This document shows, piece by piece, positions 1,984 through 25,973 of a DNA stretch of 64,000 bases. Both the position numbers and the translations under genes were made by a program. The notes below the pieces were generated by a model that worked only from the letters and a program-made list of their open reading frames with translations, did no database searches and was not told the DNA's origin. The DNA comes from Stylophora pistillata (lineage: Eukaryota): NCBI RefSeq assembly GCF_002571385.2, contig NW_019217944.1:462773-526772 (forward strand), in the 5' to 3' direction. The stretch's first letter is position 1. Every line of letters begins with the position of its first letter.

Positions 1984-4900
1984 CTGAACGTTAGGGCATT
2001 TTTCTTTAATCTTCCTTGCTACTCCTGTGATTGTACCTCCAGTACCAGCTCCAAGTACCACCATGTCAACCTTGCCTTTATGAAACACAACACCATACAA
2101 GAATCAGTTCAACGGGTGCAAAAATTTTATACAGCACTTTTTCACAAAAATATTGCATCACATCAAGAGCTAAATTACTCTTTTTTACACCGCCACTTTT
2201 TTACAGCTTTAATTCAATTGTTGAGGTTTAAATACATTGTTTGCAATTGTTTACATACATTGTTTACGATTGTTTACACACATTGTTTACATACATTGTT
2301 TACATATAACTTATTAACCAAGCGCGAGGGCCGTACTGGGAGAATATCGGCCGGAGGTCTTGACAGTACGGACGGAGCGCAGCGAGGTCCTTACAAAAAA
2401 GAACGAGGGCCGATATTCTTCCAGTACGGTCCCGAGCAAGCTTGGTTAATAAGAGATTTATTATACGACTGAAGTTCAAAGGTACATAAGTGTGGTATCA
2501 TTCGGAACCATTCGGGACATTGCCCGGTCCAATACTTAGAGAATATTGGACCGGCAATAGAGCATTTTGATTGGTTAATTTTAGTTATTGGCCCTCTGAC
2601 TACCCGAGTCGTGTAATAAAATTGTTTACATACATTGTTTACAATTGTTTACATACAAGCAAATCAAACAGAACACCTACCACCACATTGCTGAAATATC
2701 TCTTCACCTGTTCCATCATAATGAGCCAAGGCATTGCTCGCATTTCGATACTAGTAAAAAGGAACAAATCTTAGCCTTATTAGATAACGCATGTTAAAAA
2801 CAAAAAAAAACAAATGATATTCAATTGATATATAACCTTACTATTAATTTCTGACTTGATTTAAAAAACAAAATCCTTGTAATCGTTATGTTTGGAAAAA
2901 ATTAGTATAGTTAGCTAATTTACAATGTGTCAGGTAAACCAAAGATGTCAAAATTCAGATGATAAATTGAATAAATGTTATTCAGCAGTTTATATTCTCA
3001 TGTCTGATTTTCATCACCTGATCTAAGACAATGGAATTTGGGATCTCGCTGTTAAGTCGTTGAGAAACACCAATGTGTGATTCTGAAATAAACAGATAAC
3101 ACTTTATGAACATGATCCCCTTGCTTTTGAACCAGGTAAGCTGTACCTTACGCACAGTTTCTTTTCTAACGGTAAACTTTATCGTTTCCTCAATGGAAAT
3201 GTCTTGACATGAATGAATAACTCATGTGAGCCAAGTGGAGCGAAGGCTGGTATGTTTCAAGAAAATGCTAAGCCATTTATAGGAAACAGAGGCAACAAGT
3301 AAAGAAAACTACCTTTAATATGAAGGAAAGCTCGATAAATTAAGTATTTAGAGATGAACCGCTGAGCACCATTCGGATGAATTATTGTTTAACTACACTT
3401 TTTTTTATTAACAATGGAACGAGGGTTTGTCCTCTCCTACAGTTCATACTGTTGTTGAATACATATCAAGATATCAGATGGCTGATGGGGGGTGTGGGCC
3501 TTCTGCAAAACAGACAGGTACTAACAGGAGAACGCTTCCTTATCCTGGATGGTGATTACTGATATTGTTGCTATTATGCGCATATCTTGTTCACCTGGTG
3601 AGTCAAACTTGGCTTCTGTTGGTGTACGCACTATTTCTGCACCTAAAGCACGTAGGACATCCGCCTGAAAAACATTAGACGGTCATGCATAGCTGAAGAC
3701 AAGAATTGAATCAAATGAGCCACAAATCCTTAAGAAATTCCTGAGATTAAGACTAACTGCAATAAAGATAATCCATTTGAGGTAAGTGATACGTTATTCT
3801 GGTGACTTGGTTGAAGGAATTATAATATACAACAAAATTGTGTTGTATATTATGACAGAATAGAATTTAGACAGAATATCCCTGACATCTGAATCATTTT
3901 GTTCCGAAGCCGCATCAGTTAATGCTTAGTTGCTATTTGATGATATCATTCTGATCCCGTGCAAGGACTGGATACCATGTAAAACACTTTGCGGGAGTTG
4001 TATTTTGTGGTGGGCGACCTTTTGTTTTTCGCGGGAATTTTAAGACAGCAAACATCGACAATAAACAACACCTGAAACTGAATAACTTGTAGATTTACGT
4101 CTTATAGGGTGATACACATACTTTCCCGCTAAAAGGATTGACATTACAAGAACATCAAACAAAAAGCCAATGCCTTCCCTCGTCTATTTTATTTGGGAGG
4201 ATCAAGGAAGATTTGCAGAATATGTAAATTTTCATGTTATGCATTGTTATGTACAATTTTGATACCTTTTCTTTACTCATCTTTTCAGGCATGACTATAA
4301 TACAACGATAACCTTTCACAAGCGCTGCTAAAGCAACAGCAATCCCTGTAAGGAGATACAACACGATTTATATAGGGTATGTTTATTCTTAGTGTTCGTA
4401 TACACTGGCACAGGTGATCCTGATAAATACGCGGGTTATTTTATGACAATGATGCATACCTCTGTTTAAGAGCTACATTCATCCCCTAGGAATGCATTAG
4501 TTTGTTACATATGTAACCAGTAAAAATCGTAGTGGTGCGATATATTATTGATTCAAAGACCATCGCCTTCAGTTTACTTCTCAATTGTCTAATTGTCCAT
4601 TTTCTTCACCATGGCAGAAAAAAGGTTTAATATACTGTACGGAGAAAAAAACTGTCGCCTGTTTATTGTACTTGGTGAAGTTCACCGCCTTACTTTGAGG
4701 GTCATGGAAGAGAAAATGGGGAAGGAGACACTATCATTATTTCATGGTTAAAAACAAATAGCCCATTGGGTGCCGTTTCACTTAAGAGGTCAGTCAGAGC
4801 ATCCGATCAGCGATATCAATATTGTACAGCTGAAATTGTCGACAGGAATTCTTGAGAAAAGGTCCCACTGTTTTTAGTTGAGCATGCGGAATAGCAGACA

Positions 4901-24300: not shown

Positions 24301-25973
24301 GTTCCTTTGTCTACTTTCCCAGGAGTTTCCTTGGATTGAATGAAGTAGATTGAAGGTGATTACATTTTGCTTATAATTTTTAGTTTGGGAACTTGTCTCT
24401 GAGGATGGAGGACAATCTGAAGAGTATAATACAATGTAACAAAACCCATGAAAAGTTCACACCACAGGTACAGCACTAAATTCATTCAAGCAGGACAATA
24501 CCTTTTCGTTACTCATCTTTTCAGGCATCACTATAATGCAGCGATAACCTTTCACTGCTGCTGCTAAAGCAAGGCCAATTCCTGAAAACAGATAAACATA
24601 ATTTTCCTCAGCATATAAACCTCATACATTCTTTATGTCCCCCAATTAATGGCCATCTTCAGGGAAAATCTCTGTGAATTTCTATGTAATTCCATTCCAG
24701 AGCTTTGTTTTCCTCTTAATTGGCACAGTGGAGAAAACGTAACCTGTCTATAGCACATGCTGAGATTCAGTTCACCTAACAAGAAATGATATGGAAAATG
24801 GGAAAGGAATAGAATCATAATTTCTTGGTGGAAAAGAAATATTTAAGGATCCGTTAAACATATAGAATCAGTTAAACATGTAGAATCAGATTTCTAGTGC
24901 TATTTTTTCGGCGGTGACACTAGAAGTTTTCAAATATAGAGCACACATAACTCAATACATAAGCTTAATTTTTGAAAAGAAATTCTTGAAAACTTGCCTC
25001 AATACTTCTGGTTCAACATGGATAGCACAGACTGGGCTGGTTTAATTTTAGTTTAAACGGTAGGAAAAACAGATAAAACCCAGACGAATTTGAACAAACT
25101 ATGGAATATTGGCTCATCCTCAGTGTAAAAACCTGTGAAGCGCAGAGTGAGGTAAAACAAAGACAACAAAACATTATAAACAATAGCGTACAGCAAAACA
25201 ATACCTCATGAAACAAAGAAAACCTCGTCAGGTATTTACACCAAGGATGACCCGGAATATTGGATTACATGTAATTCTAGACACGCCTCCACACACGCCT
25301 ACAAATATGATGTAATGTGAATACGCAATGATTGCAACATAAAAACTTGAAATTTGAAAATTTGAAAGTTTATCTCTACCTATACCAAAAAAGGAATTGT
25401 GCTACTGAATAGTAAAGAACAATGTAAACTGACTGACCAGTATTTCCCGATGTGGGTTCAATGAGAGTGTCTCCAGGTTTGAGTTTTCCTTGGCGCTCAG
25501 CATCTTCAATCATTCTAAGGCCTATCCTGTCCTTCACTGAACCTCCTGCGTTGAAATACTCACACTTTGCCACTGAGGATGAAATACAATCTCACTATTA
25601 AGTCACAGTCATGGTCTTTTAATGACACACATAAGTTAAACTTGTACTCACACAATTCACATTTCAAGCCACAGCTTTTTCCAATCTTGTTTATTCGAAC
25701 TAGCGGGGTATTTCCAATGCGATGAAGAATATTTGGAATTACTTTGTTCTCTGTCACCCTAAGAAATTCGGGAAAGAGTTAACTTTTCATTAAACGACAT
25801 AACTGGTCTTGTTGCACTAAACACAGTTCGATCACTTACGCGGTCTTTTCGTGTTGATGTGGAGATTCAGTTTTCACTCCCAAGTGCCAAGTACATTTCG
25901 AAGGTAAATCGGGCCGAACCCATTGCCGTTTATCACCGACAGAACTTGATCGTTTCAACTCTTGATGAGACAT
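15344..25973 (-). CDS. CBS: Cystathionine beta-synthase, complete copy (17 exons, 534 aa; heme domain + PLP catalytic core + CBS-domain pair)
   Basis: GT-AG exons with consistent phases: 25840-25973, 25652-25758, 25438-25572, 24502-24581, 23510-23579, 22757-22821, 21910-21979, 21577-21668, 21240-21317, 19755-19887, 19105-19210, 18909-18989, 18453-18548, 17265-17303, 16775-16883, 16446-16530, 15344-15468 (total 1605 nt). Motifs: heme [20 protein letters not shown] lysine [80 protein letters not shown]. Confidence 0.96.
15545..16100 (+). mobile_element. Decayed repeat, possibly a Crypton-type (tyrosine-recombinase) derivative
   Basis: ORF remnant [11 protein letters not shown] resembles the PxNT motif at the start of Crypton/DUF3504 proteins. 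The 3' part (ttttcctcgagc..gcggacaaatatcc) recurs at about 63950-64000. Confidence 0.4.
16274..16389. repeat. Palindromic hairpin repeat (second copy at 26388-26498)
   Basis: aacaattattccac..gatatgagatgat.atagccaacgagg / cctcgttggct..atcatctcatatc..gtggaataattgtt. Confidence 0.85.
17951..18260. mobile_element. Non-autonomous palindromic element, copy 2 (CBS intron 13)
   Basis: Aligns end to end with 2310-2619 but sits in a non-homologous intron. Confidence 0.85.
22170..22296. mobile_element. Small Tc1/mariner-type MITE remnant
   Basis: TA-CAGTGGAACCCC ... GGGGTTCCACCTG-TA termini. Confidence 0.6.

Follow-up and report, generated by a model that had tools for sequence, protein, structure and literature searches.

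What does the second of two tandem cystathionine beta-synthase (CBS) genes do in the coral Stylophora pistillata, where one copy is canonical and the other has changed at positions that the family rarely alters? We addressed this question in a window of 64,000 bases from contig NW_019217944.1 (G000:C161:462773-526772), the window being the whole stretch of DNA that was analyzed. Self-comparison and a six-frame motif search resolve a tandem CBS pair, both genes lying on the minus strand with 17 exons each. We report an intact, spliced and selectively constrained CBS paralogue in the left gene, whose decisive changes, Y301K and Y308K, lie on the substrate loop and are encoded outside the window. 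At about even odds (a probability near 0.5), its sequence points to a working pyridoxal phosphate (PLP) enzyme that has shifted away from free serine and changed its substrate use.

An intact, spliced and constrained paralogue

A preliminary description of the window, made from the sequence alone, had proposed two same-strand CBS genes of which one is canonical; this is borne out, and every motif that it quoted is present. Six-frame search places right-copy motifs at 24582, 22810 (GVAQRL) and 21973, and left-copy motifs at 4346, 3071 (GVSQRL), 2744 and 2702 (EIFQQ), while KVDVL and KADVL straddle the exon 4/5 junction and are therefore visible only in the spliced proteins. The right copy encodes the heme motif, the PLP core and the Bateman module, and its introns are GT-AG. 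The left copy runs past the window edge within intron 8, which carries a 4127-base run of N just left of the window, and the suggestion that its remaining exons should be sought there proved correct: exons 9-17 are all present and intact past the N run, 4.6-9.0 kb beyond the window's left edge. The splice sites and frame described as intact are so over the entire gene, with a spliced frame open over 550 amino acids and GT-AG boundaries at 16/16 introns. The left and right spliced products are identical to the S. pistillata RefSeq proteins XP_022791558.1 and XP_022791559.1, respectively. A pseudogene by missing exons is rejected on the 17 exons, the open frame and the 16/16 GT-AG introns. The codon aligned with the right copy's start ATG is ACG in the left copy, so translation is predicted to begin at an in-frame ATG five codons upstream (window 7269-7287); contiguous 5' untranslated region (UTR) is found in runs X9 and X11.

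Sequence from the 3' half of the left copy occurs in 20 of the 24 listed sequencing runs. Six runs were examined, and expression levels are biased because four of these six were chosen for containing it. Copy-specific RNA, absent from the preliminary view, is now evident as spliced left transcripts in X3 (polyA RNA) and in X1, X9 and X11 (RNA by our guess). In X3 and X1, left exons 9-17 are joined at 8/8 junctions and carry a left-specific 3' UTR; contigs of both runs continue into exon 8 across the N run, and the exon 8-9 join occurs as contig loose ends in X3, X1 and X11. Left exons 3-8 are joined at 5/5 junctions in X11 and at 4 of 5 listed in X9. An X3 RNA contig matches left exon 4 with zero differences. 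Lys308 is kept in X3, where none of 13 contig differences falls in that codon, and X1 cannot encode Tyr308 because its exon-10 contig has one difference and tyrosine needs two.

The two proteins are 91% identical, with 49 aligned residues differing, and the pairwise comparison (Nei-Gojobori) gives a nonsynonymous rate (dN) of 0.044 and a synonymous rate (dS) of 0.259. None of the marks of a pseudogene that the preliminary description had listed (lost exons, no transcript, dN/dS near 1) was found, the pairwise ratio being 0.17. Neutral origin of the 36 excess amino-acid changes of the left copy predicts about 4.3 stop or splice-site hits (P 0.014 for the observed zero), or 7.6 disabling hits when an indel rate is assumed (P 0.0005 for zero). 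Changes on the left branch are also more conservative than neutral expectation (P 0.02, simulations), and X3 lists at least 2 coding differences in about 885 bases versus about 10 expected from introns (p 0.002, rough). Three conserved codons took two non-synonymous steps each, versus 0.31 expected in neutral simulations (P 0.003), and two tyrosine-to-lysine/arginine changes arose in 0/5000 such simulations; the simulation statistics were picked after seeing the data.

These results bear on whether the left copy is instead an early pseudogene or encodes a catalytically dead protein, having drifted neutrally for part of its history while transcription persisted by inertia. We consider this unlikely. 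Such decay would fit the changes at the nearly invariant G153, A159, P229, Y308 and K384, the N run and probable retroelement remains in intron 8, and the disruption of the counterpart in Pocillopora damicornis, as given in the main text of PMC9506716. However, the missing disabling hits, the conservative character of the changes and the shortage of coding differences in X3 relative to introns all argue against it.

Substitutions on the substrate loop and their possible meaning

In human numbering (left-copy position + 20), the left copy diverges at sites that are near-invariant among 308 homologues (depth varies by column), as the preliminary description had claimed. The ancestral residue is kept at G153 in 283/284 homologues, at A159 in 286/290, at A207 in 287/300 and at P229 in 297/301, with L154 (259/287) and V178 (242/299) less strictly conserved. 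EIFQQ had been counted among these changes and does not belong there, since position 241 is variable and reads V in 12/301. Beyond the window the left copy carries Y301K, Y308K, V311F and K384R, and the ancestral residue is found in 284/301 homologues at 301, in 284/289 at 308 and in 211/216 at 384. K276Q and E292D are polymorphic, the ancestral K276 being read in other runs.

We polarized the differences with Pocillopora and other corals as outgroups, without positions 1, 533 and 534 or the two ambiguous positions, 340 and 396; position 394 was assigned to the right branch. Of 44 changes, 37 fall on the left branch and 7 on the right (binomial p 5e-6), so that amino-acid change was about five times faster in the left copy than in the right. 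A rough dN/dS is about 0.33 for the left branch and 0.06 for the right, assuming that synonymous changes split evenly, the outgroups being proteins only.

The catalytic apparatus is otherwise kept. At 25/26 checked catalytic, PLP and loop residues (a list drawn in part from PMC9304066) the left copy matches human CBS, the exception being Y308. It retains the heme ligands Cys52 and His65, the PLP lysine, Asn149, Ser349, the GTGGT loop, the carboxylate-binding Thr/Ser/Gln and the C-terminal Bateman module; in the EGIGYD loop, Tyr308 is lost to lysine. Both copies exceed the cut-off of the CBS family model TIGR01137 (left 677.6 bits, right 705.3, cut-off 510.25), and an AlphaFold model of the left copy (pLDDT 84.8) predicts a CBS fold, which Foldseek matches to human and Drosophila CBS.

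In human CBS, Tyr308 activates the serine hydroxyl (PMC9304066). The VEGIGYD loop is postulated in excerpts of PMC7474069 to contact the second substrate, and the same excerpts give IEGIGVE for an O-acetylserine-dependent CBS and describe enzymes that use activated serine without Tyr308. With lysines in place of Tyr308 and Tyr301, the left copy would likely work poorly on free serine and likely carry out PLP-dependent beta-replacement with a substrate whose leaving group is better or anionic. For its first substrate, O-phosphoserine would be the best precedent, and homocysteine, sulfide or sulfite would be candidate nucleophiles, with the right copy keeping the housekeeping reaction of serine and homocysteine. 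Gene structure, splicing, the kept PLP and heme ligands, the substitutions and their asymmetry are shown directly, and from these we infer the loss of serine activation and a new first substrate; Lys308 suggests changed handling of the first substrate and does not fix the nucleophile. Since Lys308 occurs in other, presumably active enzymes, the left copy need not be dead.

Changed substrate use, as first proposed for this gene, therefore stands as the leading interpretation, for a different reason: it rests on Y308K and Y301K, which lay outside the earlier view, and not on the GIA variant that had been tied to CysK and O-acetylserine chemistry. That link does not hold, as Ala153 is found in only 2/5 CysK-like proteins and the left copy has a lower CysK score than the right. 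A CysK-like O-acetylserine sulfhydrylase is accordingly very improbable here. Ala153 is indeed shared with 2/5 aligned short CysK-like Bacteroidota proteins, and excerpts of PMC7474069 support activated-serine enzymes that lack Tyr308. But the left copy keeps the CBS-type QY (Tyr223) and EGIG where CysK-like proteins read QQF and QGIG, it carries heme and Bateman modules, and on TIGR01139 it falls below the cut-off of 350.95 and below the right copy (304.3 versus 312.5 bits); corals, moreover, already have a Cys1a/Cys2 route, according to the main text of PMC9506716. GIA as a CysK marker is rejected, Gly153 being present in 3/5 CysK-like proteins.

A more serious possibility, which we nonetheless hold at clearly less than even odds, is that the left gene is a relaxed but useful duplicate: still a normal CBS, if perhaps a weaker one, that has a separate promoter and expression pattern, serves dosage or a tissue subfunction and has tolerated the substitutions without their being adaptive. 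Its changes do not avoid conserved sites, its overall profile is still that of CBS (678 bits), its 5' flank is unrelated to that of the right copy, exon 1 is left-type in X9 and X11, and the left share of transcripts varies, being minor in X21 and X24 and high in X9 and X11. Lys308 is also the residue of the sole CBS of Thermoleophilia. Yet two double-step tyrosine-to-lysine changes seven residues apart on the substrate loop are very unlikely to arise by random accumulation, and the literature on the eukaryotic enzyme assigns Y308 a part in catalysis.

Several observations weigh against a shift in substrate use and are gathered here. Raw reads of X24 across the exon 3-4 junction are 2 left-type versus 24 right-type, and depth over the left 3' UTR is zero in X21 and X24 (2-6% of those runs read). 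Multi-base mutation events could yield the double changes without selection and inflate the statistics. Changes at sites that are at least 90% conserved number 11, versus 11.6 by random placement, which fits relaxed selection too. The disruption of the P. damicornis copy, together with the lack of an orthologue among the matches listed, indicates that a sister genus can do without the copy: left-copy orthologues were absent from the best 120 matches of each of three protein searches, one with exon 10 against longer proteins, one with residues 125-330 against proteins near that length and one with residues 125-300 against shorter proteins, the Pocillopora and Seriatopora genomes not being searched. 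Clustering at 90% may hide orthologues in these searches; in the cluster of the right copy 15/18 members are listed and 13 were aligned, all of them right-type. In 5/5 Thermoleophilia genomes the Lys308 protein is the only CBS above the family cut-off, which is compatible with a housekeeping CBS role. Mycobacterium tuberculosis Cbs, which we take to have Glu and not Tyr at 308, offers an analogy by which Tyr308 may be dispensable for serine use. That enzyme makes cystathionine from serine and homocysteine, as reported in excerpts of PMC9232105.

Features of the CBS pair. Positions are those of the window unless a contig or locus is named; substitutions are in human numbering.
Feature	Position	Strand	Description
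Right (canonical) CBS	15344..25973	-	17 exons, 534 aa; XP_022791559.1
Left CBS exons 1-3	7287-7139, 7057-6951, 6856-6722	-	within 6722..7287
Left CBS exon 4	4266..4345	-	G153A, L154V, A159L
Left CBS exon 5	3595..3664	-	V178A
Left CBS exon 6	3018..3082	-	A207S, C212S, I219V
Left CBS exon 7	2681..2750	-	P229A, V241F (241 is a variable site)
Left CBS exon 8	1984..2075	-	PLP phosphate loop intact; K276Q polymorphic
Left intron 8, part inside window	1..1983	-	full intron 6557 bases
Left CBS exons 9-17	G000:C161:458198-453814 (L001:5426-1042)	-	carry Y301K, Y308K, V311F, K384R

Age of the duplication and its published record

Two tandem CBS copies have been reported for S. pistillata and P. damicornis, the extra copy being disrupted in the latter (Salazar et al., 2022; PMC9506716, main text). 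This robust-coral duplication is the locus studied here, with two tandem S. pistillata copies beside an SLC19 transporter. The paper treats synteny; we found in its main text and one supplementary file nothing on how the extra copy differs in sequence, how it is expressed or what it does, and a term search of the main text returned no instance of "substitution". Our literature search, which did not extend to subscription journals, returned no description of an intact, expressed and accelerated copy with an altered substrate loop. The duplication itself is thus known and published.

The pair is not a haplotig artifact, a candidate that is rejected on a dS of 0.26 and on flanks and introns that no longer align: blastn returns no alignment for 5/16 intron pairs or for either flank, and most other introns align in short patches. 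The 5' end behaves differently. Exons 2-3 are nearly identical between the copies (dS 0.03-0.04) and introns 1-2 about 90% alike, with exons 1-3 plus introns 1-2 being 92% alike overall (window 6695-7274 versus 25411-25975), unlike later introns. The low dS together with the similar introns suggests 5' gene conversion, which would keep the heme and PLP-lysine region alike between copies. A protein tree yields no branching order among the left copy, the right copy and Pocillopora; informative sites are split, 2 joining right and Pocillopora and 3 joining left and right, 2 of the latter in the converted 5' part. Separately, in left exon 11 (L001:4075-4078), run X1 reads like the right copy at two sites, which may reflect local conversion, an allelic difference or the merging of contigs.

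Other features of the locus were recorded along the way. Left intron 15 (L001:1967-2066) holds about 2.6 tandem copies of the 73 bases that begin the intron; the right copy has them once. A palindromic element of about 320 bases resembling a miniature inverted-repeat transposable element (MITE) lies in left intron 7 (window 2298-2619) and in right intron 13 (17939-18260); the two are 92.5% alike and apparently inserted independently, and the very high depth of this element in RNA runs indicates a high-copy transcribed repeat. Broken frames resembling retroelements of LINE (long interspersed nuclear element) or Penelope type, judged by eye, occur at window 10426-13550, 33407-39029, 52580-54178 and 60066-60776, thus also between the two CBS copies. 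An exon of an SLC19 folate/thiamine carrier at window 30968-32020 agrees with the synteny described in the main text of PMC9506716. Elsewhere in the genome, an exon at G000:C217:301633-301761 (L131) belongs to another gene of the cysteine-synthase family, possibly Cys1a.

Taken as a whole, Acropora has lost the CBS locus and pocilloporids have duplicated it; the duplicate is broken in P. damicornis and survives in Stylophora, where its pocket has changed. This history bears on how far host sulfur metabolism differs between corals. Being 91% identical and differing at one stated catalytic residue, the pair constitutes a ready-made natural experiment on Tyr308, and it bears on how CBS-family enzymes change their first substrate (serine, phosphoserine or cysteine) and their nucleophile (thiol or sulfite). 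If the left enzyme is an ordinary or weak CBS, it would be a routine asymmetric duplicate.

Comparison with known enzymes carrying Lys308 and with other CBS duplicates

The closest parallel to the left copy's loop comes from CapA of Bacteroidota. Five of 61 Bacteroidota genomes encode a protein above the CapA (NF053679) cut-off, and the residue at column 308 is Lys in 5/5 CapA and in one protein just below the cut-off, versus Glu or Gln in 24/24 Bacteroidota CBS-type paralogues. One CapA gene adjoins a gene for a class I/II aminotransferase, a neighbor that sulfonolipid synthesis would lead one to expect, and CapA1 of Capnocytophaga ochracea (PDB 9K2P) reads EGIGK, the same as the coral left copy. 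The cysteate of the CapA pathway derives from O-phosphoserine and sulfite, according to excerpts of PMC13692747 and PMC11211663. CapA and the left copy thus share a CBS-family core, Lys at 308 (EGIGK / EGLGK) and a non-glycine residue at 153 (Ser in CapA, Ala in the coral), whereas CapA has no heme and no Bateman module.

By this analogy the left copy would have converged on CapA through Tyr308 to Lys and become an animal cysteate synthase or cysteine lyase with a heme, adding sulfite to an aminoacrylate derived from phosphoserine or cysteine and so fixing it as cysteate for taurine. We regard this as a doubtful proposal, less probable than decay of the gene; it is one specific form of the shift in substrate use favored here. 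The common EGIGK loop, the loss of glycine 153 in both enzymes and the use of O-phosphoserine with sulfite in the CapA pathway (excerpts of PMC13692747) speak for it. Against this, the left copy shares 1/21 CapA-specific columns, the other 20 not being shared; it scores well below the CapA cut-off of 600 and no better than the right copy (322 versus 324.5 bits); and the S. pistillata genome has a gene for cysteine dioxygenase, the usual entry to taurine. If the proposal were true, tandem duplication of CBS would have given rise to a sulfonate pathway in animals a second, independent time, in this case in a symbiotic coral.

The shift in substrate use can also be set against the CBS of Thermoleophilia. 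A scan for the pattern EGIGKD..P returned at least 120 loci, and 66 of the 120 listed are CBS-family, mostly from Thermoleophilia. These Thermoleophilia/Gaiellales proteins resemble the left copy in combining a CBS core, a Bateman module and Lys308 (EGIGKD), and differ in keeping Tyr301, Gly153 and Pro229 and in being the sole CBS of their genome. The subfamily (GTDB loci L009-L124) reads EGIGKDxW, is widespread and often lies beside purH and an AlkZ-like gene. Around 24 bacterial Lys308 loci we saw no consistent sulfur-gene context within 2.5 kb (19 of 45 neighbor frames scanned); one Thermoleophilia locus has a Cys/Met PLP enzyme two genes downstream, which would fit a relaxed duplicate that remains an ordinary CBS. 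No biochemical characterization of this subfamily was found in the literature searched, and the activity of the left copy would also hint at its role.

Compared with human CBS and the right copy, the left copy keeps the heme ligands, K119, N149, S349, the phosphate loop, T146-T150, Q222, Y223, G305, G307, the Bateman module and the 17-exon layout. It departs from both by Y308K, Y301K and V/I311F on the substrate loop and by G153A, L154V, A159L, A207S, P229A and K384R elsewhere. Among animals, a precedent that favors the cysteate reading is the sauropsid cysteine lyase, the chicken enzyme having reportedly arisen from a tandem CBS duplicate (Malatesta and colleagues are said to have described this in 2020). 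Like the coral left copy, that gene is reported to be a tandem duplicate of CBS whose active site has changed and which sits beside a canonical copy; unlike the coral gene, it is old and widely kept.

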